In this document: positions 3,729 through 59,549 of the stretch, piece by piece | Position numbering within the stretch: the first letter of the stretch is position 1 | Layout of the letters: every line of letters begins with the position of its first letter | Assembly: GCF_030684315.1 (NCBI RefSeq) | Contig: NC_081355.1 | Coordinates: 101,666,472 to 101,730,471, forward strand | DNA length: 64,000 nucleotides | Origin: Stegostoma tigrinum | Taxonomy: Eukaryota | Direction of reading: 5' to 3' | The notes under the pieces: generated by a model | The model's input: only the letters and a program-made list of their open reading frames with translations | Told to the model about the DNA's origin: nothing | The model's database searches: none | Translations under genes and position numbers: made by a program

Positions 3729-5422
3729 AACTAACAAACCAGCTCAGTAAGCAAACCAACCATGGTATAAATCTGATGTTATAGACCAGTTGCACCTTTT
3801 GTGTTTTGCAGATTCATCAGAAGCGGGTGACGTCCTTGATGCCCTGTGAGATATTCTGCATCTGTGAATACACATTCACTTCAACTATCTTACCTGCCAT
3901 TAATAAAGTCTGTGTATCTGAATCATAGAACCCATTTCAGAGTTCCAGTTTTTGGGTGCCCTGATGATGGTCTGGATATTGGCACTTGGATTTTGAGACA
4001 CTCTAGATGTCATCTGTTGTCATCATACCTTTTAGTAATCTAGAAATTTTTATATCCCTAGTGTAATTTATATACCAGTCAAGATTGACAAGCTTCGTGG
4101 TTTTTAGCCAGTTGCAATTCATGAAACCGATTCTTTTGCTAATTATTTGGTCGCTAAGACTGTTAACACTTGCTGACACAGGTCAGTCTAAATATTATTT
4201 AGGAAGGCTTCATATTGGCTTCAGGCTATTATTGGTCAAGGAATTGTAAATACAATACCAGGATTATTTAGTGCTATGAAATTGCCTGTTAAATTGCTGA
4301 CACACCATCTTGGCATGATATGTACATACATTAGGTATCTTTCCATAGTGTCTTCTTTCAGTATTCAGTGCATTTGGGATCATTGCCCTTCTCCTGGTTC
4401 TTAAGGAATTGCCTTCTTTCAAGATTGTGTGTGAAGTGCTATTGCATTAGTGTGAATATTCTCTCTTGCCCTGTTCATCCTTTTCTGCCAATGATTTTTC
4501 TCAGCTCTGCAATCAGCCTTCATTGCAGTGTCCCATGAATGAAAGATGTGACTGCATTATTTCACGTGACACTTTTTTTTTAATCTTCTGTACAGCTTTG
4601 TCTATTGAATGGTCATTTTGTTCATTTCTTTCAATATATCAAAGGTTCAATCATCTTGTCATGTACTGAAACTTCCTATTCATAAATTTATACAGCTATT
4701 AAGATGCTGTTTATATCTTCACATTCTCCATTTTACCATTACAAGTCTCGTTTCTGATGATTCTAAACAGACCATAATGCACGGTATGTTTTCATTGTTC
4801 TAACATTAGTCTATTTATACTATGAATTCATTTTAGCATGATAATATGGTGTTGTATGTCTCCTTGTTTAAAACGTTACTTTATTCACTTAGCATTATTT
4901 GTTGTTCACATACTGTGAGAGGAAGGTATAACAATACCTGGTTAGAAATGTAGGTTTGATTGCAAATTATGTGTATCTAAGTAGATAGGACACGCATATT
5001 AAAATATTAACTCCTGTGTGAATCATTGTCCTTAATCATTAAAGACACCACCCAGCAAGAAAAGCCAGAAAGATCTACTTTGTGCAATGTCTCATCAATT
5101 TCAATCAAAAACAGGTGTGAAAATGACTAACTACAAAAGAAATGCTGAAATCCTCCAACTGATATGCAATAACAAAGATCCTATTCACATGAATATCATT
5201 TGAAACCTGAATAAAGCAGCACATCAAAAACAGAAATGAAACATCTCTACTGATAAATCTTTAAGAATGGATTATTTTAAGATTAAAAAACAAATGAGTT
5301 AAAAGGAATATAAAAACATTCATCATCTATTATGAGATATGGATGGTGTTGCCTGGGCCAGCATTTATTGCCCAGACCTCATTGACCTTGAGAAGGTGGT
5401 GGTGAGCTGCCTTCTTAAGGTC

Positions 5423-7040
5423 AAAATCATAGAGCTGTGTAGCATGGAAACTGACACATCGGTGTAACTCGTCCATGCCAACCAGATACTTTAAATAAAT
5501 CCAGTCCCATTTGTCAGCATGTGGCCCATACCCTTCTGAACCCTTCCTATTCATGTACCCTTCCAGATGCCTTTTAAATGTTGCAAATGTACCAGCCTAC
5601 ACCACTTACTCTGGCAGCTCATTCTATACACATACCACCCTTTTTGTGAAAAAATTGACCCTTAGGTCCCTTTTATTATCATTTCCTTCTCACCTTAAAC
5701 CAATGTCCTCTTGTTTTGGACTCTCTCACCCTGAGCAAAAGACTTTACATATTTACCCTATCCATACCCCTCATGATTTTATAAACCTATGAGGTCACCC
5801 CTCAGCCTCCATCACTCCAGGGACAATAGCCCCAGCCTATCCAGCCTTGTAAATCTTTTCTGAACCCTTTCAAGTTTCACAACATATAACATCCTTCCTA
5901 TAGGAGGGTGACTAGAATAGTGTCCTAAACAATGTCCCGTACAACTGCAACATAGCCTCTCATCTCCTATACTCAATGCACTGACCAATAAAAGCAAGCA
6001 TATCAAACACCACCTTTGGTATCTCATCTGTGTTTCTGCTTTCAAGGAACTATAAACCTGCACTCCAAGGTCTCTTTGCTCAGCAGGACCTTTCCATTAA
6101 CTGTATAAGTCCTGCCCTGATTTGCCTTTCCAAAATGCAGCACCTCAGATTTATCTAAATTAAACTCCATCTGCCATGCCTTGGCCCATTGGCCCCTCTG
6201 ATGAGGACCCGGTTGTGCTCCGAGTTAACCTTCTTCACTGTCTACTGCACCTCCAAGTTTGGTGTCATCTGCAGACTTAATAATACCTCTTATGTTTGCA
6301 CCCAAATCGTTCACATAAATGACAAAAAGCAGTGAACCCAGCGCTGATTAGTGTGGCACACTGCAGGCCACAGACCTCCTGTCTGAAAACAACTGTCCAC
6401 TACCTCCCTCTGTCTTCTACCTTTGAGTCAGTAGTGTGTCCAAATAGTTAGTTCTCCCTGCATTCCATGTGAACTAACTGTGCTAACCAGTCTACCGTGA
6501 GGAACTTGTCAAATGCCTTACTGAAGTCCAGAAAATCACATCTACCGCTCTGCCCTCATCTTCTTTACTTCTTCAAAAACTCAAACAAGTTAGTGAGACA
6601 TGATTTCCCACGCACAAAGCCATATTGACTATCCCTAATCAGTCATTGCCTTTCCAAATACATGCAAATCCCGTCCTTCAGAATCCCTCCATCAACTTGC
6701 CCACCACTGATGTCAGGCTCACTAGTCTATAGTTCCCTGGCTTTTCCTTACCACCTTACTTTAATAGTGACACAATGTTAGCCAACCTCCAGTCTTCCAG
6801 CACCATATTTGTATCATTGCTCGCCACAGGTATCTCAGCAAAGGGCCCAGCAATCTTTTCCCTTGCCTCACATAGAGTTCTGGGTTACACCTGATCGGAT
6901 CCCAGAAATTTATCCACCTTTTTGCATTTTAAGAGGTACAGCACCTTCCCCTCTGTAATATGGACATTTTTCAAGATGTCGCTATTTATTTCTCCACGTT
7001 CTCCATCTTCCACCCTTCTCCACAGTAAACTCTGTTGAAC
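5423..7040 (-). mobile_element. CR1 LINE, 5'-truncated, degraded
   Basis: Minus-strand RT motifs (DFSKAFDK-like, ADDTKL, KLERVQKRFTR in ORF 5812..6063) and CR1 3' UTR. Confidence 0.85.
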
Positions 7041-7280
7041 CACTGCAATTCATTTGATGAATTTAGATAAATATGAAGTGCCGTATTTTGAAAAGGCAAA
7101 TCAGGGCTGGACTCATATATTTAATGGCAAGGCCCTTGGGTAGTGTTTCATTGTTCCTTGAAAGTAGAGTTGCAGGTAGACAGGATAGTGAAGAAAGTGT
7201 TTGGTACCCTTGCCTTTATTGGTCAATGCACTGAGTATCGGAGTTGAGAGATCACGTTGTGGCTGTACAGGACATTGGTT

Positions 7281-10200
7281 CCTTTTTTTCATTCATGAGA
7301 TGAGGGAGTCTTTGGCTAGGCAGCATTTATTGCCCATTCCTAATTGCCCAGAGGGCAGTTAAGTCAACCACATTGCTGTGGGTCTAGAGTCACAGGTATA
7401 AAGTAAGAATGGCGGTTTCCTTGACTAAAGTGCATTAATGAACCAGATAGGACTTTCCTGACAATTGGCATGGATCAGAACTTGGGACTACGATGTTGTG
7501 CCCATTACAGAGACTTGGATAACACAGGGGCAGGAAAGGTTGTTGGGTGTTCCGGGGTATAGATGTTTCAAAAGAAATGAGAGGTAAAAGAGGTGGGGGA
7601 GTGGCATTGCTAATCAGGGATGGTATCACAGTGCAGAAAGGGAGGATGTGAGGGAGGGTTTGTCCACTGAGTCAGTATGGGTGGAAGTCAGAAACAGGAA
7701 AGGAGCAGTCACTTTATTGGGAGTTGTCTGTAGACCCCCAATAGCAGCAGAGACACTGAGGAACAAGTTGGGAGACAGATTTTGGAAAGGTGCAGAGATA
7801 ACAGCGCTGTTGTAATGGGTGACTTTAACTTCCCTAATATAGACTGGAACCTCCGAAGTGCAAATAGTTTTGATGGAGCAGATTTTGTCAGGTGTGTCCA
7901 GGAAGGATTTCTGAATCAATATGTAGATAGGCCCACTAGAGGGGAGGCCATATTGGATTTGGTGCTTGACAACGAACCAGGCCAGGTGTCAGGTCTCTCA
8001 GTGAGAGACCACTTCAGTGATAGTGATCACAACGCCCTGAGATTTATTATAGTCATGGAGAGGGATAGGAGCAGATAGTATGGGAAAGTATTTAATTGGG
8101 GGAGGGGTAATTACAATGCTATTAGGCAAGAACTACAAAACACCAGTGGGGATCAGATGTTTTCAGGGAAATGCACGACAGAGAAGTAGAGGTTGTTCAG
8201 GGAGCAGTTGCTACAGGCACTGGATAGGTTTGTCCACTGAGGCAATGAAGGGATGGTAAGGTGAAGGAACCTTGGATGACAAGACATTTGGAACACCTAG
8301 TCAAGAAGAAGAAGGAAGCTTACTTACGGTTGAGGAAGCAAGGATCAGACAGGGCTTTAGAGGTCTACAGGTAGCCAGAAAGGAACTGAAGAATGGACTT
8401 AGGAGAGCGAGAAGGGGGTATGAGAAAACCTTGGTGATTAGGATCAAGGAAAATCCCAAGGTTTTCTATACTTATGCGAGGAAAAAGAGGATGGCCAGAA
8501 TGAAGGTAAGGCCAATCAGGGATAGTGGAGGGAACTTGCGTGCGGAGGAGGTGGAGGAGGTCCTTAATAAATACTTTGCTTCAGTATTCACTAGTGAGAG
8601 GGACATTGACGTTTGTGAGGACAGCATGAAACAGGCAGCTACACTCGAACAGGTTGATGTTAGGAAGGTGGATGTGCCAGAAATTTTGAAAAAAATGAGC
8701 ATAGATAAGTCCCCTGGGCCAGACAGGGTATACCCAAGGTTACTACAGGAAGCAAGGGAAGAATTTGCTGCCTCTTTGGCATTGATCTTTGCATCCTCAC
8801 TGTCCACTGGAGTAGTACCAGACGATTTGGAGGGTGGCAAATGTTATTCCCTTGTTCAAAAAAGTGAATAGGGATAACCCTGGGAATTGCAGACTGGCCA
8901 GTCTTACTTCTATGGTGGGCAAATTATTGGAGACAATTCTGAGAGATAGTATTTATGATTATTTGGAAAAGCACAGTTTGATTAGAAATAGTCACCATGG
9001 CTTTGTGAGGGGTATATCATTCCACACAAGCCTTATTGAAATCTTTGAGAATGTAGAGCAGTGGATGTGATGTACATGGATTTTAGCAAGACATTTGATA
9101 AGGTTCCACATGGGAGGCTCATTCAGAAAGTTAGTAGGCATAGGATTCAGGGAAATTTGGCTGTCTGGATATGAAGCTGGCTGTCCAATAGAAGACAGAG
9201 GGTAGTAGTAGATGGAACGTATTCAGCCTGGAGCTCAGTGACCAGTGGTGTTCCAAAGGGATCTGTTCTAGGACTCTGCCCTTTGTGACCTTTATAAACG
9301 ACTTGCATGAGGAAGTTGAAGGGTGGATTAGTAAGTTTGCCAATGACACGAAGGTTGGTGGAGTTGTGGATAGCGTAGAAGGCTGTTGTAGTTGTAATGG
9401 GACATTGACAGGATGCAGAGTTGGACAAAGAAGTGGTAGATGGAATTCAACCCAGAAAAGTGTGAAGTGATTCGTTTTGGAAGGTCAAATTTGAATGCAG
9501 AATACAGGGTTAATGGCAGGATTCTTGGCAATGTGGAGGAACAGAGGGGTCTTGGGGTCCATGTCCATAGATCCCTCAAAGTTGCCACCCAAGTTGACAG
9601 GGTTGTAAAGAAGGCATACGGTGTCTTGGCTTTCATTGGCAGGGGGATTGAGTTTAAAAGCCGTGAGGTTATGCTGCAGCTCTATAAAACTCTGGTTTGA
9701 CTACACTTGGAATATTGAGTTCAGTTCTGGTCACCTCATTATAGGAAAGAAGTGGAAGCTTTAGAGACAGGGTGCAGAGGTGATTTTCCAGGATGCAGCC
9801 TGGGCTGCAGGACAGGACTTATGAGGAAAGGTTGAGGGAGCTAGCACTTTTTTTTCATTGGAGCGAAGAAGGATGAGTAGTGACTTGATTGTGTAAACCT
9901 CTATGATGAGAGGCATAGGTAGAGTGGATAATTAGAGACTTTTTTCCAGGAAATGGCTATTAGGATGGGACATAATTTTATGGTGATTGGACGAAGGTAT
10001 GGGGGAGATGTCACAGGTAGGTTCTTCACACAGAGAGTGGTGGGTGTGTGGAATATGCTGCCAGCAGTGGTAGTGGAAACAGATCCATTAGGAACATTTA
10101 AGTGACTCTTGGATAGGCACATGGAGGATAGCAAAATGTAGAGTATGCAGGATAAATTGATTTTAGTAGAATAATAGTTTGGCACAACATCGTGGGTCAA

Positions 10201-26413: not shown

Positions 26414-26607
26414 TTATCTTTCACCTTCCTTATTTGATGTTTTAACAACTTGCTCGTATGGAGGGGGTGGCTGATTGCAGTAGGCTGGCGGGGGTGGGTA
26501 GGCTGGGTTGAGTAGAGGAAAATTTGGCTGAATTTGATAGGTTGAGGCAATGGGATTAACAACAGGTGCTCCAGGTTCTGTGTAATATTGCATTCCAGTC
26601 TGGTTGC
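26414..26607 (-). CDS. VOPP1: VOPP1-family protein, last coding exon (proline-rich tail with PPAY and PPPY motifs)
   Basis: ttgtttgcag acceptor, phase 1; NQTGMQYYTEPGAPVVNP...YPPPPAYCNQPPPPYEQVVKTSNKEGER*; matches the VOPP1 C-terminus PPPPAYCNTPPPPYEQVVK. Could be a VOPP1 paralogue. Confidence 0.93.
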
Positions 26608-28699: not shown

Positions 28700-31540
28700 C
28701 ATGGCATGACTTGATTAAATATATAAAATTGATATTTATATAGGCTAAAGTGAAAGAAAATGCAAAGAAGCCTAGTATATATGGGATAAACTTTGGAATG
28801 GAACAATTATAACTTTGAGAACTATAATACCAAAAATAACAAACATTCACAAGTTGCATACAGTTTAAGGAAAAGAGCTGTAGGGTCTTTTAAGTTAAAT
28901 TGATTTAGTAGTTAAAGCATTTGTCTCTAATAGCTAGTAATAAAGAATTAGCAAAGTCTCTGACAGAATGTTACTCAGCAAAGTAATCTATAGATGGGTA
29001 ATACAATCTCAGACAGATACTGACAATCCATATCTTCGGGTGTGATGGAGGGAAGTAATAGAATCTTGAGAACAAATTGAAATGTTGGGTACAAACAGGC
29101 TAACATTTACACAGACAACAGGTAGCATTTGGAGATTATATCGTATCATGAACTGAAGGGGATACATCACCTCAGAGGAAGGGGACATATAGCATGAAAC
29201 AGTAATTAAGGCATTAGTGGGAACTGTCAGACTTCTACTTGAGGCAGCAACGATAAAGGTTCAAGCACAATCAAAAGGAAACAGATCACACTCAATTAGG
29301 TAACCTTAAGATAGATGAAGCGGCTATGAAGGCAATTGCAACAGGCCCCAAACATCAGGTGGCAGCAGCAGTAATTGGTCTGGAGAAAGTAAACATGACA
29401 CATTTTGGAATAAGTGATGGCAGGAACAATGAGTAGTAAAAGATGCTGAGGGCATCTGGCAGAAAAGGTACTGCATTCAGCATAACCACATGGGAATATA
29501 CACCGACATGGAAACCATTGAAGGAAGCCACGTTAAGGAGGATGAGCAAATGCTAGTGATGGCATAGGAAGAGCTGTAGCAAAACACTGTCAGCAATTGC
29601 TTGGCATGTGCCCAAAATAGCCCAAGATGACCATGTCAAACAGCCTGACCAAATGGACTATGTGAGCAGTTAGAGGAACGGGAGAAAGCTTATTGTTTGA
29701 TTATTATTGACCAACTGAGAGTGGTGGAAGCCTCTCCCACACAAGGCTTTTCAGTGACAAATGTTACTTAAATATTGTTAGAAGTGGTAATCCTGAAATA
29801 GGGAATACTATTATTAAGAGATTCAGTTCAAGAGGCACATTTCACAGGATGAGTGATTAAGGCAGCACGCAGAATTTTGGCCTTTAGTAGTACTGGGGAG
29901 TTTAAAAATAGAGTAGTGTTGTTACAACAGCACAGGGTGTTGGAGAAACTGCATCTGATATACTGTATACTGTACATTTTTGGTTCTGTATTTTTAAAAC
30001 AGGATACACTGGAATTCAAGGTAGTTCAAAAGAGATTTACTAGGCTGATTCCTGAGATGAAGGGGCTGACTTGCTGAAAACAGATAAACAGGTTAGGTCT
30101 TTATTCAACTGAGTTTGGGAGATTGAGAATATATTGAGGATATGTAAGATATATCTTATTGAAATATACAAAATGACGAAGAGACTTAAAGTGGACGGTG
30201 AGAAGTTGATTTCACCTGTGTGAAATCTTTATCTAGGTGACATAGTTACATATTTAAACAAGAGGCTGGAAGAACATAGCAAGCCAGGCAAGCGTGTGGA
30301 GGAAAGGTGAAATCAATGTTTCGGGTATTACCCTTCTTCAGGGCTGGATGTGGGGGTAGAGGGAGCTGCAAACAAAGACTTTGAGGGGGGGTACGGAATG
30401 GTGATAGGTGGACATTGGTAGTAGGTATGGTATTGTTGATCAATGGGAGAGATGAATTCGGTTGGTAGCTGGAAGTCAGAATCAGTAAGTGGAATGGAAG
30501 GGAGGAGCCGGAGGATGGGTGGGAAGGTTATTTGGAATTACAGAAGTAAGTGTTGGGTACTCTGGGCTGTAGGCGGAAGATAAGGTGTTATTCCTCAAAT
30601 TTATATGCAGCTCCCCCTACTCCCACATCCACTCCTAAAGAAGAGCATTACCCAAAACATTTCCTTTCCTCTAGATGCTGCTTGGCCTGCTGTGTTCTTC
30701 CAGCCTCATGTTTGTCTATCTTGGATTTCAGCATCTGCAGGTTTTTTTTGTCTCTTAACACATATTTAAAACTGAGATGCAAAGGAATTTCTCCTCCTGG
30801 AATTATGAACGTTTGGAATTATGAACGTTTGGAATTGTCTATCCCAGAGAGCTGTGGAGCTCAGACCACAAAGTATTTAAAGAGGCTGAAGATAAATTGC
30901 GAAATATCAAGGAGTCGAGAGCCTGGCAAGCTTGAGGGGACAAATGGCTTACTCCTACTTCTACTTCTTGTGACGTTTCTAAATTGCTAAGAATAAAACA
31001 AAAACTGGAATTTCCTCAATCACCCACAGAGCTTTGGGACAGTACAGCAAATTGATCGGATATCAAAGAGACCATTAGCTAAAGTTATCCAGGAAATGGC
31101 ACAGGAACAGGCCAAACTATTGCCTGGTATCCTGATAGGATTTAGGGTAAAATCTAGTAGGTCAACCAGATTAACTTCGCATGACAGGCAAGGTAATGAG
31201 TCTGTTAGGAGATGGTGTGGCTGGTATTGAGGAAGTACCACCTGCAAGTGAAGAGGGGTAAACAATTTATGAGAAAATCTGTGCAGCTGCTTACAAAGCT
31301 GAGGCAAGAGGTTTGGGATCAGCTGGTCATATGCAACAGAGATGTAGAGGCAGAAACGGAACAGGTCAAGACACCCAGTGTAGAACATAAGGTCATGGTA
31401 TAGGTCATGCTTGAGGGGGACTGGGAATTGCATTACAAAGGATAGGACATCATCAGTAATTATTAGTGGCATGTACACCTATATAGGCATAAAAAGGAAA
31501 GGTCACTTGAAGCACTAGTTGCAATTGGTGCAAGTTAAAG
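28700..31540 (+). mobile_element. Endogenous retrovirus pol relic (class I, epsilon/gamma-like RNaseH + integrase), interrupted by a CR1 fragment at about 29850-30990
   Basis: NIYTDNR.AFG...RGYITS...TIKVQA.SKG...GN..IDEAA (29100-29330); CLACAQNSP, YCLIIIDQ, ILLEVVI..G...DS...HFTG (29590-29850); HPQSFG.V...LAKVIQE...LLPGIL (31020-31140). Confidence 0.78.
30259..30759. mobile_element. Fold-back PLE (Neptune-type) mini-insertion
   Basis: Inverted pLTR arms; exact TSD ACATATTTAAA at 30248-30258 and 30760-30770. Confidence 0.8.
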
Positions 31541-33630
31541 TTAGCAGGTGCAGCGAGTAATTCAGGCAGCAAATAGAATTTTTACCCTTGTAGGAATTCA
31601 AAAATAAGGAAATCTTGTTATAATGTAAAGGGGTTTGGTGAGGCCAAACCTGAGGTACTGTGCATGATTTTCCTTCCTATATTTAAGAAAAATATGATGC
31701 TGGTGCTCAAAAGAGATTCACTAGGCTGATTCCTGGGATGAAGGACTGACCTATGAAGTCAGGCCTGTATTTACTGGCATTTGGAAGAATGAAACAAAAG
31801 TTTCTTACATGTCTCAATGAAATATACAAGATCCTGAAGGGGCTTGAGAGGGTAGATGTTGAGGTGTTTCCACTAGGACGGAAACTAGTGGACACAGTTA
31901 CAGAATGAGTAGACACAAATTTAAAGCCAAAATGTGAAGGAATTTCTTCTCCCAAAAGGATAGTAAATGCCTGGAATTCTCTGAGTGTGTTGTGGAGGCA
32001 AGATCTCTCAAATTATTTAAAGAAGCAATCGACAGATTTTTCAAATATCAGAGAGTGGAGGGCTATAATAAGTTGACATGGATGAGGAGTTAAGGCCTGG
32101 GGCAGATGAGCCATGATCTTGTTAAAGAGCTAGGCAGGCTTGATGAAACAAATGGCCTCTTCTGGCTCCTGTTTTTCTTGTCCTCAAGTAAAACCAGTTC
32201 CTCACTGTCATGCTTATATTGGCTAGCAAATTTACAGACTTCTTCTATCAGGATATCTGCATCTAGTGGTCAGCAAGTGCATTATTTTCACATTAAAAAT
32301 TACAATTTCTGTTATGTACACTTTCTATTGAGCAATCCTGATTTTAGCTATTTTTGCCCATCAGTAAGCATTATCAGCAGGATTTAAGCCAACTACAAAA
32401 TGATAAGTGAATAGGTCTGTGTCAATTTAATTGCACAATACTTAAATTTCATATTGGTAAATGTCTTCAAAATATCTGTTTGTGCAAGCAAGTCTGATTT
32501 TGTCAATGCAAAATTGCATTTTCAGATGAAATCTGCTGATCCTTTAAAAAGGTAATCCATATGAAATTTCACTCAGCTTAAGAACTAGATTAAGTTTTAA
32601 AAAAATGCAACCAAGTATCTTTCTGCACAGCAAATGAATCACTATCTACGTTCCCAATTATATTAAGAACCCTACTATCCTTGCAAATAGCCCTCTTTTC
32701 TTACAAATTGCTACAAAAAGTATCAATATTGGCTCTGAAAAAAGCAAATCAAGTGATGATGGTCTTAAAGACTGAATGCTACAAAAGCTTTTTTTTTAAT
32801 TGCAAGTTTTGCGGCATTCTTTGAATGTTAAATATAGTTGCATTAGTATTTTAAAAGTATACAGTTACAAGAATACTGACTTACTCCTCAAGCTCACTGT
32901 AATAAATTACGTTTTATTGCAAAATCGACAGTTTCATGAAGAACATTTAGCAGCATTCTCACCGAGCTGCATGTGATTCACCAAAGACCGACTGCATAAC
33001 TTTAAAAGACTCCTAGCCAGTAGCATTTGATTTAGAAAAATTACCATATTAAAACAAAAAAGACAGAAGGTTCAAAAGAAACCTACTTTTAGAATCATAA
33101 AGCAGCTGTCCTGTTGCTGCCAATAAATATTCTTGTGACAAGATTTTCCAATATAGACTTGTCTCAATTCAATGGGGTACATGTTGGAACTAAAACCCAG
33201 TTATTCACAGGGGCACCACAAAAGTTAAAATAGTACACAAAGATTCCTCAATTTCCCTGATGTTCAGACCCAGGTTGAAAGAAAGCATGGACCAGGTTCC
33301 TGTGCTTAACGAGAGCTATGTAAACACTTAAAAGCTGTCAGCATGTAACACCATTACTTAAAACTCTAATCCCTTTATAAATTCCATCCCCTTTCTGTCA
33401 CACCTACATATAGGAAATAAAACATGCATTATGGGCAAAGAAAAAAAACAGAAAAAGACAATTCAGTAGTTCCTGTTCACAATGATTACAAAGATGATTG
33501 GAGTGCTAGTCAGAACACAGCTTTTTAGTAATCCTGAGTGATAATGGGAACTGCAGATGCTGGAGAATCCAAGATAATAAAATGTGAGGCTGGATGAACA
33601 CAGCAGGCCAAGCAGCATCTTAGGAGCACA

Positions 33631-33668
33631 AAAGCTGACGTTTCGGGCCTAGACCCTTCATCAGAAAA
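33631..33668 (-). ncRNA. Minimal hammerhead ribozyme motif, sense to the VOPP1-like pre-mRNA
   Basis: CTGATGA-A-GGGT-CTAG-GCCC-GAAAC-GTC-AG: intact cores with palindromic ACGT stem III. Confidence 0.8.
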
Positions 33669-33816
33669 GGGGGATGGGGAGAGGGAACTGGAATAAATAG
33701 GGAGGCGGACCGAAGATGGAGAGAAATGAAGATAGGTAGGTAGGTAGGTAGATAGGTAGAAGATAGGTAGGTCTTTTCTCCATCTTCAGTCCGCCTCCCC
33801 CTCTCCCCATCCCCCT

Positions 33817-33848
33817 CTCTGAAGAAGGGTCTAGGCCCGAAACGTCAG
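33817..33848 (+). ncRNA. Minimal hammerhead ribozyme motif
   Basis: CT-CTGAAGA-A-GGGT-CTAG-GCCC-GAAAC-GTC-AG. Confidence 0.78.
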
Positions 33849-35625
33849 CTTTTGTGCTCCTGAGATGCTGCTTGGCCTGCTGTGTTCATCCAGCTCCACA
33901 CTTTGTTATCTTTTTTTAGTAATCCTTCTCCGATTGCTTCCCCCTAGTGGAAGCAGAGAGGCTGACACTTCTAAAAAAGGTCTCTGACTTATCTGTTATA
34001 AGTCACAGTTTACAGGAACTGAAGCAGAGATGAGTTTTCTTCAGGTTTAAAGTGGTTTACTATAGAGAACAGACAATGAGCTAGCTCCTGGCTGGTGGAA
34101 ATCTGATGGCTTCTCTGTACCTTGTTCCCAGCTCTAAGCTATTGTTACCTTTTTACCAAACACAAGGATTTTGACAGGCAGAAGGCCTCTGTGATCATTT
34201 ACTGGTCAATAGTCCGTAACCAACATACACTAGGGGAAGAGAACACCAATGGATATTGATAAGGGAAGTGGTGATTAATATTTTTCTTGAGTGTATTGCT
34301 GGCATATTTCTAAATTAATTTGGAGTTTGTGAAGGGTGAAAGATAGGAATACCAGTCATGAAATTGATTTTGGACATGAATACCAAGTGGATTTCATGGT
34401 AGGTGATGAGGGTGGAGATGGACATTTTGGGTGGGGAGAAACAACAAGAGAAGAGTCAGCAATGGTCCAAAAATGAAAAGAGCAACCTTTGCTTTTGAGC
34501 TGAAAATGTCAGGTCAAGATAAAGCCAGGCTGCCTTTCCCATTGCGGTGGAACGTCGATGGCGGGTTAAAGCATTGCAGCTACAGACATGTTGGTCCTCT
34601 GGTAGGTAATACAAAGGAGCAGTAGGACAGAGAACTTAGTGACATGAAAATCCACAAGGGGAAGACAATAGATGAAAATGAATAAGAAAAGTAAAGTTCC
34701 TCAGATGCTGGAAGTATGAAATTAAAACAAAATGCTGGAAAAACTCAGCAGGTCTGTCAGCAACTGTGAAGCAAGAAATAGAGTTGGCTTTTGGAGTCCA
34801 ATAATGAATTTTCTTTCGAAGAAAAATGAAGCTGTCAACAATGTCAAAGATGTAGAAAGATCAAAATGAACAAGATTTACTACAATACCTATTTGTAATC
34901 TCGACCAGAACATTCTCTCATGTTGATAAGGCTTGAATCAGAAATGTTGGGAGAATTTGAGCTGCAGCAATGTACTTAAATACCTTTGTGACAATGAATA
35001 GATTGGAAATGAGAAGACAGTTGTAAAAAGGTTGAATGTGTGTTTGAGAAGGGCTGACAACAGTATCTTCTTAAAAAGTGTGCAGAGTTCCCAAGAACAA
35101 CGAGAGTTCAATCAACTTTGGAGTGTAGAGTCAAGAAAAGTTGAAACAAAAGGAGGACGAGGAATCAGGCAGTAGACTGCACAGAGGCATGTGAAGTTGA
35201 GAGGAGCAGGACAGAAACATTAAAGTGAAAGCTGAGTTAGGCAGAGCAGGAGGCTGAACAGACTAAGTGGATTCCCTCAAGAAAATGCAGTCCTGACATT
35301 TGTCAAAGGTGAGACCAGTTGAGGGAGAAAGTGAAGATAGTGACCAGCAGTGTTTAATATCATTTCTTGGCATTCATTTTAGTTGTCTTTGGTTAAAATA
35401 ATACTAACTGCATAGTTTGCAGCCCAGCAGCTTGCAACTGGAACCTTACAGAATGGTTTGAGCAAAGGAGGCTCAATAGAAGGTTTTTTTAAAACAGGTA
35501 ATCATTTCATTCTAAATGCAATATCATGTAACATTTAAACAATACGTCACAACCCCATTTTAAAATATGCTAAAATTTGATGGGCACAAACTTAGCCCTG
35601 ACATATGAACTGATGCCATGCTTAC

Positions 35626-35777
35626 TCCCTGTGGTCTGAAATCCACTCGTGTTAACAGGTTGCCGAGTGAAGCCCACTGTAAATGGAGGGTCAGTAGTCA
35701 GCTGAGGAGGATGTAGTCGTCTTCGGATAAAAAAACCAGCGCCACAACAAAACAAGACACCCATCATCAATAGAAAC
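35626..35777 (-). CDS. VOPP1: VOPP1-family protein, transmembrane/cytoplasmic exon
   Basis: ctttcctgcag acceptor, gtaagc donor; FLLMMGVLFCCGAGFFIRRR identical to VOPP1 as recalled; phases 2/1 fit the neighbouring exons; donor position slightly less certain. Confidence 0.92.
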
Positions 35778-37552: not shown

Positions 37553-37784
37553 CAGAGATAGTAACAACTGCAGATGCTGAAGTCAGAGATAACATTGTGG
37601 AGCTGGAGGAACACAGCAGGCCAGGCAGCATTAAAGGAGCAGGAAAGTTAATGTTTCGGGTCGGCAGCATTCTTCAGAAAATTCAGATTTTCTGAAGAAG
37701 GGTCCCGACCTCAAACGTCAACTTTTCTGCTCCTCTGATACTGCCTGGCCCGCTGTGCTCATCCAGTGCTGCACTGTGTTATCA
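37553..37784. mobile_element. Fold-back PLE mini-insertion with two decayed hammerhead cores back-to-back
   Basis: Central palindrome TTCTTCAGAAAATTCAGATTTTCTGAAGAA; TSD CAATTATATGCT / CAGTTATATGCT (37541-37552, 37785-37796). Confidence 0.85.
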
Positions 37785-40283: not shown

Positions 40284-42437
40284 CACAATTGTAGTTTGGC
40301 ACACTGACCTCTACATCACCAAGGCCAGACGCCAGCTCTCTGACACCTCCTCCTATCGGCCCTATGATCATGACCCCAACCTTGACCACCAAAACATCAT
40401 CTCCCAAACCATCCACAACCTCATCACTTCAGGTGACCTTCCACCCACGGCTTCCAACCTCATCATTCTCCAACCCTGCACAGCCCGATTCTATCTCCTT
40501 CCCAAAATCCACAAATCTGATTGCCCTGATTGACCCATTGTTTCCACCTGCTACTGCCCCACTGAACTTACCCCCACTTATCCCAACTCCATTTTCTCCC
40601 CCTTGGTCCATGAATTCCCCACCTATGTCTGTGACACCATCCACACCCTCCAAAGCCTCCGATTCCCTGGTCCCCAACACCTCATCTTTACCATGGACAT
40701 CCAGTCTCGATTACACTTGCATTCCCCATGCGGATGGCCTAAAGACCCTCCGCTTCTTCCTGTGCCAGAGGCCTGACCAGTCCCGCTCCACTGACACCCT
40801 CATTTGCTTAGCTGAACTCATACTCGTCCTTAACTTCTCTTTCAATTCCTCCCACTTCCTACAGACAAAGGGGGTGGCCATGGGTACCCGCATGGGCCCA
40901 AGCTATGCCTGCCTCTTTGTAGGTTACTTGAAACAATCCCTCTTCCATACCTACACTGGCAAATCCCCGACCTCTTCCTCCTTTACATCGATGACTGTAT
41001 CGGTGCCGCCTCGTGCTCCCAAGAGAAGCTCGAACAGTTCATCCACTTCACCAACACCTTCCACCCCAACCTTAAGTTCACCTGGACCATCTCTAACGCC
41101 TCTCTCTCCTTCCTGGACCTCTCTGTTTCCATCTCTGAGAACCATCTGGAAACCGATATCCATTTCAAGTCTACTGACTCCTACAGCTACCTAGAATACA
41201 CCTTCTCCCACCCACCTTCCTGCAAAAATGCCATCCCCAATTCCCAATTCCTTTGTCTCCGCCACATCTGCTCTGGGGATGAGGCATTCCACTCCCAGAC
41301 ATCCCAGATGTCCTCGTTTTTCCAAGGACCGCAACTTTCCCCCCATGGTGGTCGAAATGCCCTCGACCACGCCTCCCGCATTTCCCGCAACTCATCCCTC
41401 ACACCCCCTCCCCACAATAACAACCAAAACAGAGTCCTCCTCATCCTCACGTACCACCCCATCAACCTCTGGATCCAACACATCATCATCCAACATTTCC
41501 ACCATCTGCAATCCGACCCCACTACCAAAGACATTTTTCCCTCTCCACCCTTATCTGCCTTCCAGAGGGACGACTCTCTCCATGACTCCCTCATCCAATC
41601 CACACTCCCCACCAGTCCCACCACCCCTGGCACTTTTCCTGCAACCGCAGAAAGTGCTACACCTGCCCCAACACCTCCTCCCTCACTCCCATCCCAGGCC
41701 CTAAGAAGACCTTCCACATCAAACAGATGATCATCTACACATCTGCTAACGTGGTATGCTGTATCCGCTGTTCCCGATGTGGCCTCCTCTACATCGGGGA
41801 AACCAAGCAGAGGCTTAAGGACCACTTTGTGGAACACCTACGCTCGGTTCGCCACAAACAACTGCACCTCCCAGTCATGAATCATTTCAACTCCTCCCAC
41901 TCCTTAGATGACATGTCCATCCTGGGCCTCCTGCAGTGTCACAACCATGCCACCCGAAGGTTGCAGGAACAGCACCTCATATTTCATTTGGGAACCCAGC
42001 AGCCCAATGGTATCAATGTGGACTTCACAAGCTTTAAAATCTCCTCTCCCCTGACCACATCCCAAAACCAGCCCAACTTGTCCCTCCTCCCACCTATCCC
42101 CTCCTCCACAAGCCCTAGCCCCATCTCCTACCTATCAGCCTCATCCTGCCCCCTTGACCTGTCCGTCCTCCCTGGACTGACTTATTGCCCCCTCTAACTC
42201 CCCACCTACACTCACTTTTACTGGCTCCACCCCTGCCTTTTTGACCTGTCTGTCTCCTCTCCACCTATCTTCTCCTTTATCCATCTTCTATCTGCCTCCC
42301 CCTTTCTCCCTATGTATTTTGGAATCCCGTTCCCCTCCCCCATTTCTGAAGAAGGGTCCAGACTCAAAATGTCAGTTTTTCTGCTCCTCTGATGCTGCTT
42401 GGCCTGCTGTGTTCATCCAGCTCTACACACTGATATC
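40284..42437 (+). mobile_element. Penelope-like element (Neptune-type) RT + GIY-YIG endonuclease, frameshifted; likely parent family of the fold-back mini-elements
   Basis: FYLLPKIHK, FLQTKGVAMGTRMGPSYACLFVG, YIDD, and NVVCCIRCSRCGLLYIGETKQRL (ORF 41727); 3' pLTR with decayed hammerhead at about 42346-42375; TSD ATTGATTGGGAAATG / ATTGATTGGGGAATG. Confidence 0.93.
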
Positions 42438-46296: not shown

Positions 46297-46439
46297 ATAA
46301 CACAGTGTGGAGCTGGAGGAACACAGCAGCCAGGCAGCATCAGAGGAGGAGGAAAGCTGATATTTCAGATCAGGACCCTTCTTCAGCTATGGGCCCATGG
46401 CAATGGACTCCAGCATCAGCAGTTCTTACTATCTCTTCA
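46297..46439. mobile_element. Fold-back PLE mini-insertion
   Basis: pLTR pieces in opposite orientation; exact TSD CCTTACAGCT (46287-46296, 46440-46449). Confidence 0.8.
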
Positions 46440-53945: not shown

Positions 53946-56619
53946 TCGTTAGGGGTTTACTACAGGCCCCCCAATAGCAGCAGGGAGATTGAAGAAAGCA
54001 TAGGTCGACAGATTTTGGAAAAGTGTGGAGCAGTAGGGTTGTTGTAATGGGTGACTTTAACTTTCCTAATATTGATTGGAACCTCCTTCGAGCAGAAGAT
54101 TTGAAATGGAGCTGTTTTTGTAAGGTGTGTTCAGGAGGGTTTCCTAACGCAGTACGTTGACAGGCCGACGAGGGGAGAGGCCATTCTAGACTTGGTGCTC
54201 GGAAACGAGCCGGGGCAGGTATCAGATCTTGTGGTGGGAGAGCATTTTGGTGATAGTGACCATAACTGCCTCACGTTCTACGTAGCTATGGAGAAGGAGA
54301 GGATTAGGCAAAATGGGAGGATATTTAATTGGGGAAGAGGAAACTATGATGCGATTAGACATGAGTTAGGAAGCATGGACTGGGAGCAGTTGTTCCATGG
54401 TAAGGGAACTATAGACATGTGGAGACTGTTTAAGGAACAGTTGTTGGGAGTGATGAGTAAATATGTCCCTCTGAGACAGGCAAGAAGGGGTAAGATAAAG
54501 GAACCTTGGATGACGAGAGCGGTGGAGCTTCTTGTGAAAAGGAAGAAGGTAGCTTACATAAGGTGGAGGAAGCTAGGGTCAAGTTCAGCTAGAGAGGATT
54601 ACATGCAGGCAAGGAAGGAGCTCAAAAATGGTCTGAGGAGAGCCAGGAGGGGGCACGAGAAAGGCTTGGCAGAAGGAATCCGGGAAAACACAAAGGCATT
54701 TTACACTTAGGTGAGGAATAAGAGAATGATCAAGGAAAGAGTAGGGCCGATCAGGGATAGCATAGGGAACATGTGTGTGGAGCCTGAGGAGGTAGGGGAA
54801 GCCCTAAATGAGTTTTTTGCTTCTGTCTTTACGAAAGAAACTAACTTTGTAGTGAATGAAACCTTTGAAGAGCAGGTGTGCATGCTGGAATGGATAGAGA
54901 TAGAGGAAGCTGATGTGCTGAAAATTGTCAAACATTAAGATTGACAAGTCGCCAGGCCCGGACCAGATTTGTCCTCGGCTGCTTTGGGAAGCGAGAAATG
55001 CAATTGCTTCGCCACTTGCGAAGATCTTTGCATCCTCGCTCTCCACTGGAGTCTTACCTGAGGACTGGAGAGAGGCAAATGTAATTCCTCTCTTCAAGAA
55101 AGGAAATAGGGAAATCCCCAGCAATTACAGACCAGTAAGTCTCACGTCTGTCGTCTGCAAGGCGTTAGAAAGGATTCTGAGGGATAAGATTTATGACCAT
55201 CTGGAAGAGCATGGCTTGATCAAATACAGTCAACACGGCTTTGTGAGGGGTTGGTCATGCCTTACAAACCTTATCGAGTTTTTTGAGGATGTGACTAGAA
55301 AAGTTGATGAGGGTCGAGCTGTGGATGTGGTGTATATGGACTTCAGTAAGGCATTTGATAAGGTTCCCCATGGTAGGCTCATTCAGAAGGTCAGGAGGAA
55401 TGGGATACAGGGGAACTTAGCTGCTTGGATACAGAATTGGCTGGCCAACAGAAGACAGCGAGTGGTAGTAGAAGGAAAATATTCTGCCTGGAAGTCAGTG
55501 GTGAGTGGGGTTCCACAGGGCTCTGTCCTTGGGCCTCTACTGTTTGTAATTTTTATTAATGACTTGGATGAGGGGATTGAAGGATGGGTCAGCAAGTTTG
55601 CAGACGACACAAAGGTCGGAGGTGTCGTTGACAGTGTAGAGGGCTGTTGTAGGCTGTCCTTGGGCCTCTACTGTTTGTAATTTTTATTAATGACTTGGAT
55701 GAGGGGATTGAAGGATGGGTCAGCAAGTTTGCAGACGACACAAAGGTCGGAGGTGTCGTTGACAGTGTAGAGGGCTGTTGTAGGCTGCAGCGGGACATTG
55801 ACAGGATGCAGAGATGGGCTGAGAGGTGGCAGATGGAGTTCAACCTGGATAAATGCGAGGTGATGCATTTTGGAAGGTCGAATTTGAAAGCTGAGTACAG
55901 GATTAAGGATAGGATTCTTGGCAGCGTGGAGGAACAGAGGGATCTTGGTGTGCAGATACATAGATCCCTTAAAATGGCCACCCAAGTGGACAGGGTTGTT
56001 AAGAAAGCATATGGTGTTTTGGCTTTCATTAACAGGGGGATTGAGTTTAAGAGTCGTGAGATCTTGTTGCAGCTCTATAAAACTTTGGTTAGACCGCACT
56101 TGGAATACTGTGTCCAGTTCTGGGCGTCCTATTATAGGAAAGATGTGGATGCTTTGGAGAGGGTTCAGAGGAGGTTTACCAGGATGCTGCCTGGACTGGA
56201 GGGCTTATCTTATGAAGAGAGGTTGACTGAGCTCGGTCTCTTTTCATTGGAGAAAAGGAGGAGGAGAGGGGACCTAATTGAGGTATACAAAATAATGAGA
56301 GGCATAGATAGGGTTGATAGCCAGAGACTATTTCCCAGGGCAGTAATGGCTAGCATGAGGGGTCATAGTTTTAAGCTGGTTGGTGGAAAGTATAGAGGGG
56401 ATGTCAGAGGCAGGTTCTTTACGCAGAGAGTTGTGAGAGCATGGAATGCGTTGCCAGCAGCAGTTATGGAAGCAAGGTCATTGGGGTCATTTAAGAGACT
56501 GCTGGACATGTATATGGTCACAGAAATTTGAGGGTGCATACATGAGGATCAATGGTCGGCACAACATTGTGGGCTGAAGGGCCTGTTCTGTGCTGTACTG
56601 TTCTATGTTCTATGTTCTA
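53946..56619 (+). mobile_element. Young CR1 LINE ORF2 (APE + RT) with few disruptions
   Basis: ORFs 54192, 54711, 54925, 55695 with all CR1 motifs; (TTCTATG)n tail. Confidence 0.97.
55523..55787 (+). repeat. 131-bp tandem duplication spanning the RT FADD motif
   Basis: Copies start at 55523 and 55654; CTG microhomology at the junction. Confidence 0.93.
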
Positions 56620-58133
56620 ACACAATGCAAGATATTCTCAATGTAAAGGGTGACTTTGATTCATACAAATTCTGCGGTGGTCATCCTTACCAATACCACC
56701 ATCAGTGGTTGGCAGATTGATGAGGACAAAGACAAGTATATTTTTCCCTCTTGCCACTTGCTGCAGACCCAGACTAGCATCAATGTCCTTTAGGACTCAA
56801 CCAGCTTTATAGTATGATGGTGACTGAAATCTCCCACTGAGAGTAAATTCTGGATCGTTGTCACCAGCAATGCTTTCTGTTTCAACACAGAGATGCAAAG
56901 ACACATCAGGCGAGAGAGGATGGTACGTGGTGAATCAATAAGAGGTTTCCTTGCCTATGTCTGACCTGGCAACATGTAACGTCACAATGTCTGAAGTTAA
57001 TGTTGAGGACTCTCATGGAGACTCCCTCATGACTGGATACCACTGTAACACTACTTCTACTCAGCCTGCTCTGCCAGTGGGGAACAAGACATACTCAGGG
57101 ATGATGATGGTGCCTAGTACATTCAGAGCAAGGTATGATTCTGTGAGTGTGACTATGTCAGGCCGTTCCTTGACCAGTCTATGAGACAGTTCTTACAATT
57201 TTGAATCTGCCCCAGATGTTTGTGAGGACATCGTAGGGTTGACATGGCTGTTTTTGCCGTTGTCATTTTCAATGCCTTATTTGACACTATGTGCTCAACT
57301 CTATTCCATTTTTTTGGGGGAAGTTGCTTAGTCATTGTTATAACAGTGACATGTTTGACCATTTTAGTGAGCAGTTAAGAATCCAGCACAGTGCTGCAGA
57401 GCTGGAGTCACATGTAGGTCATACCAGGTTAGGCTGGCAGATTCCCTTTCCTAAACAGTATCAGTGACCTGATTAGTTTTTCTGACAATAGATGGTGACT
57501 TCCACAGTCATCGTTAGAACCTTAATTCCAAATTTTTACTGAATCCAAATTCCATGAAGCCAGGTCTCCAGAACATTACCAAGCTTTCTAAATTAATAGT
57601 TTAGTGACATTACACTGGACCATTGTCTCCCCTTGAATCCCATGTTCCCTGTTGCCGATGTGGTTGCTGTGGACCTCACAGGCATCTAGCAGTTCCCATC
57701 TGATAGAGGTCTTCCAATCTTGTTGTAAGACATAGGAGCAAAAGTAGGTTAATCAGCCCATTGAGTCTGCTCCACCATTCCATAAACTCATGGCTAATCC
57801 AGTAACCCTTAACTCCACGTTCCTGCCTTTTCCCTATAACCCTTGATTTCCGTACTGATTAAAAATCCATCTATCTCAATCAATAACAACTCAGCCTCAA
57901 CAGTGTTCCTTGGTATTTCCACAGACTCTCTGCCACAGATGAATGCTTCCTAATCTCTGTCTTAAATGTGCATCCCCTAATTCTAAGATTATGCCCTCTG
58001 GTCTTAAAATCTCCTATAAGGGGAAACAACCTCTCCGCATGTACCCCTGTCAAATCAAAAACTGTGTGTTTCAAAAAGGTCACTTTTCATTCATCTAAAT
58101 TCTGAGCACAGGCCCAACCTACTGTATGCATAA

Positions 58134-58213
58134 GAGATAATGGGAACTGCAGATGCTGGAGAATCCAAGACAACAAAATGTGAGGCTGTTCATCCAGCCT
58201 CACATTTTGTTGT
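58134..58213. mobile_element. 80-bp minimal fold-back PLE insertion (21-bp perfect hairpin)
   Basis: AGACAACAAAATGTGAGGCTG-ttcatc-CAGCCTCACATTTTGTTGTCT; exact 15-bp TSD CTACTGTATGCATAA (58119-58133, 58214-58228). Confidence 0.9.
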
Positions 58214-59549
58214 CTACTGTATGCATAAAACAGTTCCTTCATACCTATTAGCCTGGTCAACATTCTCTGGACTGCCTACACTGCCAGCATCATTTTCTAT
58301 AACTAAAGAGCCCAAACCTGTTCACAGTACTCCAGCTATGATCTGACTAGTAGCCTGCAGCTTTTGTAAAACCTCTTACTTTTATATTCCATTCCTTTTG
58401 AAATAAAGGCCAACATTCCATTTGCCTTCCTTATTAACCCGAACTTTGATGCTAGCTTTTTGTGATTCATGCATGAGAATACCCAGATCCTTCTGTGCTG
58501 CAGCTTTGTCTTTCTCCATGTAAATAATATTCAGTTCCTCTATTCTACCTTCCAAGGACAATGGTATTTAAAAACAATAGATATCATGGAAGTTCTTCCA
58601 CTTGTACAAAAGTTCAAAAGGTAAGGGTTATAAATACATTAAAGAATTCAGAAGAAGTCTCTTTTCCCACAATGTGGTCTGAATGGGCAACTTTCTACCA
58701 TATGAATTGCTGAAGTAAATAATGTAGAGGCAATAGACAGTTATAGATAGGATAGACAGTTGTATATTATTATACCGATAGGCTTAAAAGAGGGATAGCA
58801 ACATTTGAAAAGGCAATATGGGCTGAAGCGCCTGCCTCTATGCTGTAGTTTCAGCATACTAAGTGACTAAAACTACTCCAGTAATTACAAACAAGTTTAA
58901 ACCATGTCTGCATTTTGCACTAACTAATTTGATTTTCACATATTTCAACAGTTAACCGTTATTCTACTTGGTGGATGTTTGAGACAACTTAAATGAATTT
59001 CTTTCCCTTAAATCCTTTATGGTATACTGGGTAGTAAGGTTAGATCACATGGGATCCAGAGAGAACTATCCAATTGGAAGCAAAATTGGTTTGAAGGTAG
59101 GAGGCAAAGGGTGGTGATAAAAGGTTGCCTTTTAGACTGGAGGCCTGTCACCATGGGTATGCCACAAGGATCAGTACTGGGCTCACTGATTTTTGCCATT
59201 TATATAAATGATTTGTATGTGAATATAGTTGGCACAGTTAATAAGTTTGCAGATGACATCAAAATAGGTTGTGTCATGGTTAGTGAAGAAGGTTACCTCA
59301 AAGTCAACAGTACTTTGATTAGATGGATCCATGAGCTGAGAAGTGGCAGACGGAATTTAGTTTAGATAAATGTGAGGTTCCTACAGATTTCTAGAAACGG
59401 CAGTATTTCGGGCAGTATTTCGCTTTCAGTTTTAGCATTAATTTCTTTACATTCTACATTAATGAATTCTGCACTCTGCAGCATTAACAGATGTAAAATG
59501 TGTTGTGTTCCAAAATAATGCATTAAGCTACTACTTAAAGAATACTTAC

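Follow-up and report, generated by a model that had tools for sequence, protein, structure and literature searches.

A 5'-truncated, inverted Penelope-like insertion in a VOPP1 intron, probably an inert scar with hairpin-sequestered hammerhead motifs

The insertion and its host gene

The window, meaning the whole 64,000-nt stretch of DNA analysed here, contains three consecutive coding exons on the minus strand, and their splice phases agree. The middle exon identifies the gene as VOPP1. With phased exons and a 94% match to the white shark protein, the placement of the element in a VOPP1-like intron by the initial annotation is secure. A Pfam search with the three exons returned one sub-threshold match only, which we judged to be due to chance. 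The exons are as follows.

~43559-43482, minus strand: VOPP1 coding exon, assigned by splice phase
35626-35777, minus strand: coding exon of VOPP1 on the upstream side of the host intron; identity to white shark VOPP1, 94%
26414-26607, minus strand: last coding exon of VOPP1, with PPxY motifs and a stop codon, identified from its splice phase and motif

The last coding intron of this gene carries an insert of 377 bp (33536-33912) between exact direct repeats. The splice donor is ~1.7 kb, and the splice acceptor ~6.9 kb, away from the insert. Its parts are listed below.

33522-33535, plus strand: left copy of the target site duplication (TSD), 14 bp, same as the right copy
33536-33773, minus strand: left arm, a 5'-truncated inverted 3' UTR/pLTR copy, sense to the VOPP1 transcript
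33536-33570, minus strand: Penelope 'tail' extension of 35 nt, in the left arm only
33733-33772, plus strand: TAGG array of 10.2 copies, at the inversion junction
33772-33912, plus strand: right arm, a 5'-truncated 3' UTR/pLTR copy without the tail
33913-33926, plus strand: right copy of the TSD, 14 bp, matching the left copy exactly

These coordinates agree with the first description of the element as a 377-bp insert with an exact 14-bp TSD, long inverted arms and a (TAGG)n-like loop. The Penelope origin also stands, both arms being copies of the 3' UTR/pLTR of one family. The main arms (33571-33672 and 33811-33912) are 102 nt long and 92% complementary. Further inwards, 33668-33685 pairs with 33799-33816 and 33700-33725 pairs with 33774-33799. 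Both arms align to the 3' UTR/pLTR of a full-length family copy (locus L061), and each has its own internal deletion. In the right arm this deletion is ~25 nt, and the subfamily variants of the right arm are unlike those of the left. The left arm aligns with the upstream pLTR of L061, where the sequence of the 35-nt tail continues toward the start of the ORF. We took the concept of the tail from the descriptions in PMC3846280 and PMC8557442. The two arms are asymmetrical, with the tail restricted to the left arm, and ORF sequence is absent from the element.

The TAGG stutter was likely seeded by the CCTATCTTC motif in the 3' UTR of the family. No TAGG stutter was found beside the other family copies tallied. 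We also considered the TAGG loop as a feature of the family. This was rejected; CCTACCTA adjoins the 3'-UTR motif in one tallied copy, which is the present one.

The parent family and its fold-back copies

The family is abundant. The 3.2-Gb genome contains 92,385 exact copies of a 31-nt core, and none of the reversed control. For comparison, a different way of counting gave ~4,000-9,000 motifs in coelacanth and Xenopus (PMC4209133), against the ~92,000 exact cores here. The full-length copy L061 (2769-6035, minus strand) has an uninterrupted stop-to-stop frame of 1088 amino acids, encoding a reverse transcriptase (RT) with a YIDD motif, a CxxxxCxxC linker and a GIY-YIG endonuclease (EN). Pfam matched RVT_1 (E 3.4e-5) and GIY-YIG (E 0.0015), both below the curated cut-offs. 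Of 7987 candidates scored, 1712 were homologues of this ORF, and the best was a bamboo-shark protein with 76% identity. Together with the white shark match of the VOPP1 exon, this makes a shark the likely host. L061 is flanked by pLTRs, which are followed by an inverted truncated copy. The two pLTR regions are 98.7% identical to each other and the family looks to have been recently active.

An RT and, at the C-terminus, a GIY-YIG endonuclease in one ORF define EN+ Penelope-like elements, and L061 has this arrangement. The family also has the pLTR structure with tandem or inverted 5'-truncated copies, and a hammerhead within the pLTR. Read by eye, the L061 ORF shows a CxxxxCxxC linker as well as a CxxC within its GIY-YIG core. 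Neptune elements are described as having a CX2-5CxxC zinc-finger-like linker between RT and EN, together with a CCHH motif in the EN, and the linker is also present, in reduced form, in Nematis (PMC8557442). The same account describes Penelope and Poseidon as lacking this linker. Judged by the linker motif in the sequence, the family likely belongs to the Neptune clade. Our literature search for inverted Penelope insertions of Neptune type in sharks found no papers.

We next turned to the arrangement of family copies in four contiguous blocks, 504 kb in all. The C2 block is centred on the window, and the C3 block contributed zero matches and was kept in the count. In total there were 84 family matches, 48 of which fell into 24 outward-facing pairs within 3 kb, the present element included. 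The same 504 kb held 13 inward-facing adjacent pairs within 3 kb. Hence, the pairing rule admits some chance neighbours. Among the first 100 exact cores listed, adjacent pairs separated by no more than 2.5 kb were outward-facing in 10 cases and inward-facing in two. Loci L001-L030, after two duplicates had been dropped, added 17 pairs and brought the total to 41. The tail was present on exactly one arm in 38 of these 41 pairs; it was on both arms in one pair, on neither arm in none, and two pairs were ambiguous. Tested against independent choice at 0.5, this one-tail rule (38/39) has p = 1.5e-10. In 22 of the 41 pairs, a finder with 12-nt slack detected flanking repeats of 11-16 bp. As a rough extrapolation from the 24 pairs in 504 kb, there are likely 10^4-10^5 fold-back Penelope stubs genome-wide.

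Several other features were seen in the surveyed DNA. The C3 block (G000:C3:50000001-50100000, L081-L090) is 100 kb without a family match, and its first 300 bases resemble a tandem satellite. At L025, ~150 nt of non-family filler (~845-998), possibly captured sequence, lies between the arms of a 1.4-kb fold-back. The window has older or related Penelope pLTR fragments at 1364-1525, 30262-30740, 37566-37783, 42244-42437, 46297-46386 and 58133-58215, and several of these are likewise inverted. Those at 30341 and 37677 are in VOPP1 introns, in the host sense, and have a non-palindromic helix III. At 55523-55787 an exact 131-bp tandem duplication lies in an apparent LINE reverse-transcriptase fragment, judged as such by eye.

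On this evidence, we give a probability of roughly 0.87 to the element being a 5'-truncated, inverted insertion of an abundant Penelope-like family, likely of the Neptune clade, with its hammerhead sequestered in a hairpin and the whole likely an inert scar within the VOPP1 intron. The element is an ordinary member of a known and published fold-back layout. An inverted pLTR, a TSD and a tail on one of the inverted ends are described for Adineta (PMC3846280) and in general schemes (PMC8557442; PMC8969392). The closest described counterparts are Adineta vaga Pen2a/Pen2 (PMC3846280; scheme in Fig. 2 of PMC8557442), which share a truncated copy with an inverted truncated neighbour, a TSD and a 30-40-bp tail at one end. 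Compared with the Adineta examples described there, the TSD is 14 bp rather than 9-10 bp, there is no ORF remnant, the junction has a TAGG stutter and the arms are of different subfamily variants.

Non-LTR retrozymes (bioRxiv 10.64898/2026.07.22.740005; PMC7229834) are, as described, also non-coding and hammerhead-bearing derivatives of Penelope pLTRs. Their units form head-to-tail tandems, which allow cleavage as dimers, whereas the element here is single and its two cores are inverted. Elsewhere in the genome, locus L064 (G000:C1:49657614-49658730) has four matches to the 5'-ORF motif of the family, 362 bp apart, and is probably a tandem retrozyme-like array. The spacing is close to the mean unit of 363 bp given for the retrozymes of one chondrichthyan (bioRxiv 10.64898/2026.07.22.740005).

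Origin of the inverted arms

The proposed insertion would begin with the GIY-YIG endonuclease nicking both target strands, ~14 nt apart. Each 3'-OH would then prime a cDNA on element RNA; one start would be at the end of the tail, and the other ~35 nt further in. Both cDNAs would stop early, and their 5' ends would be joined with a TAGG stutter, the run arising by apparent slippage on the CCTATCTTC motif at the joint. Priming on both strands, at two start sites, would explain both the outward-facing 3' ends and the one-tail rule. We infer the two-strand priming step. A precedent is Poseidon_Ac of the green anole (Frangieh et al. 2024, PMC11167929), which is described as sharing an ORF with RT and GIY-YIG domains, a pLTR hammerhead and a tail between two RT starts. 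In vitro, the anole protein cleaved and extended both target strands, with the two RT starts bracketing the tail, and this fits the anatomy here. One difference is that the first Met of the L061 ORF is downstream of the hammerhead and tail, whereas that of Poseidon_Ac is described as lying inside the hammerhead. Alternatively, self-priming on an antisense template has been proposed for inverted pLTRs (PMC3846280), and may be compatible with most copies.

The arms of the present element bear on this choice. They are 92% identical to each other, and each is 97-99% identical to other genomic copies. Thus, the left arm equals another genomic copy at 100 of 102 nt, and the right arm equals another at 95 of 96. 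At the level of sequence, this suggests that two different RNA templates lay behind the two arms. Such discordance is rare. When polymorphic columns were compared, 29 of 31 young fold-backs differed between arms at one column or none; L027 was discordant at 2 of 5 columns and the present element at 4 of 6. On the same count we discarded the idea that the two arms generally stem from different subfamilies; 29 of 31 young pairs differed at no more than one diagnostic column. All four discordant columns of this element fall within 11 nt, so that they would also be explained by a single short tract of gene conversion or by an error of assembly.

The insertion may be a fossil of two-RNA, two-strand priming. 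In that event a dimeric RT/endonuclease would have held RNAs of two subfamilies, started once at the tail and once without it, and left two cDNAs that were joined in the middle. We regard this fuller account as tentative, and somewhat less probable than its negation. A single cDNA folding back on itself cannot yield chimaeric fold-backs. Hence, a genome-wide count of such copies would discriminate between twin priming and self-priming. The origin of Penelope inverted ends is still called unresolved in PMC8557442, and the one-tail rule, together with the rare chimaeric copies, provides a direct genomic test of twin priming.

The hairpin and its hammerhead cores

Folding of the whole element gave -273 kcal/mol (z = -23.7), a value equalled by 0 of 100 shuffles. 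Within VOPP1 pre-mRNA, the insert would fold into an interrupted dsRNA hairpin of ~140 bp and would leave with the spliced intron. Inverted Alu pairs provide a point of comparison for a passive hairpin with consequences for the host. Were the hairpin to be A-to-I edited or diced, it could alter VOPP1 splicing or feed silencing of the family. Its great stability, and its location within a conserved gene, speak for such a role, and anti-Penelope small RNAs have been reported in a rotifer (PMC3846280). However, the splice sites are 1.7 kb and 6.9 kb distant, and the hairpin is indistinguishable from many similar ones. We therefore consider this role unlikely at the present locus. The genome is likely loaded with long intronic hairpins on which RNA editing or small-RNA silencing could act; this load belongs to the family and not to the VOPP1 locus.

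A MITE-like, non-autonomous mini-element that is copied as a hairpin unit would likewise be small, with terminal inverted repeats and a TSD. Several copies sharing an internal junction would then be expected, and were not seen. In a search that gives a lower bound, the 86-nt junction had 18 matches; it was full-length at this locus only, and the remaining 17 comprised the left part with the TAGG run. A junction that is unique indicates that the stub was assembled at insertion rather than spread as a unit. Fold-backs in the sample also vary in size, from 95 to 2,779 bp, and have differing junctions. A MITE-like origin is thus very improbable, and the insertion is better read as one of many inverted Penelope-like stubs.

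Each arm contains a hammerhead core.

33635-33666, minus strand: minimal type I hammerhead, host-sense; CUGAUGA, C3 = 33664, C17 = 33637, predicted cut after 33637
33817-33848, plus strand: minimal type I hammerhead, antisense to VOPP1; CUGAAGA, C3 = 33819, C17 = 33846, predicted cut after 33846

Both have a bulged A, a helix II of 4 bp capped by a tetraloop, then GAAA, an ACGU palindrome and GUC as the cleavage triplet. The assignment to minimal type I hammerheads with a palindromic stem III is thus upheld. Both arms also fit the min-HHR consensus, with a conserved core, a bulge before 10.1, G10.1-C11.1 and palindromic 15.2/16.2. As described in PMC4209133, min-HHRs share CUGANGA, an extra base between 9 and 10.1, G10.1-C11.1, palindromic 15.2/16.2 and the lack of loop 3. 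The same paper describes dual minimal motifs in Schistosoma, on opposite strands and 100-700 bp apart. Helix II is 4 bp here and 7-8 bp in Schistosoma; helix I is 2 bp here, as in a D. virilis variant, and 4-5 bp in Schistosoma (PMC4209133). In the plus arm helix I consists of U-A and C-G, and in the host-sense minus arm of U-A and U.G. Neither arm has the 4-5 bp helix I of the min-HHR. Thus, the initial annotation of intact cores on both strands holds for the core letters and falls short at helix I, which is just 2 bp.

A minimal-hammerhead descriptor matched 25 sites in the 504 kb, and each of 20 shuffles gave zero. Hence, the hammerhead motif is not due to chance. Helix I was 2 bp in 21 of the 25 matches. 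An Rfam search, proposed as a check when the element was first annotated, returned no hammerhead, either for 33200-34300 at E up to 5 or for 33590-33710 at E up to 10. Such a miss is weak evidence against a motif that lacks loop 3. Sub-threshold Rfam matches to generic hairpins (miRNA, snoRNA and lncRNA) were rejected as shape artefacts.

Locus L029 had raised the idea that the true helix I of the family is longer. This was rejected; 94 of 135 cores have a 2-bp helix I and only two have a longer one, both at junctions. The two are L026 and L029, where the junction just upstream of the core happens to give a predicted helix I of 6-7 bp rather than 2 bp. Of these, L029 does not belong to a fold-back; on its predicted structure, it is a stronger candidate than the present element for a ribozyme active in the genome.

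The 5' ends of family copies were also tallied. Of 51 internal ends, 19 are at the core's front edge and five are within ~2 nt of the cut site (p ~0.03, with the window chosen post hoc). The tally is a weak hint that the ribozyme of the family cuts the element's own RNA. Neither arm of the present element starts at the core edge or the cut site. Published minimal hammerheads showed no cleavage as monomers and low cleavage as dimers (PMC4209133). The anole hammerhead is reported to cut only with protein and to be dispensable for insertion in vitro (PMC11167929). By our reading, the hammerhead would serve the RNA of the retroelement and would do no cutting at this locus.

The initial annotation had gone further, and proposed a self-silencing ribozyme switch in VOPP1 pre-mRNA, with a co-transcriptional choice between self-cleavage and hairpin formation. 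Some of the premises are sound. The core letters are intact in both arms, one core is host-sense within the intron and, as had been stated, the inverted cores mean that any transcript contains one ribozyme and its antisense. Because the arms point outward, the antisense arm comes first in a transcript of either strand, and by the time the ribozyme appears its complement is already present. We calculated the folding penalties with ViennaRNA, which treats equilibrium only; strict constraints were used and assistance by protein was ignored. The competent fold was 42-49 kcal/mol above the ensemble once the transcript extended 2 bases beyond the cut site, rising to 52-60 kcal/mol later. With the antisense first and a penalty of 42-60 kcal/mol, there is no window in which a folding choice could be made. 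In an isolated arm, by comparison, the predicted cost of the cleavage-competent fold is 6-15 kcal/mol. On its own, the plus arm favours a fold in which CUGA pairs with UCAG. Helix I is only 2 bp, and helix III cannot close in a monomer. The only other host-sense descriptor match between the mapped exons (~30341) has a non-palindromic helix III. Lastly, fold-backs are the usual, and commonest, form of the family, so that this locus bears no mark of recruitment by the host. A host ribozyme switch would be striking if true; the reading fails, and we rate it the least probable of all those considered, below even the MITE-like origin.

A second family of minimal hammerheads was seen in the window, at 280 (minus strand), 2557 (minus strand) and 3691 (plus strand), and in the C5 block. 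In its members the bulged base is U, helix II is longer and helix I has 3-5 bp; the copies in the window are partly decayed.
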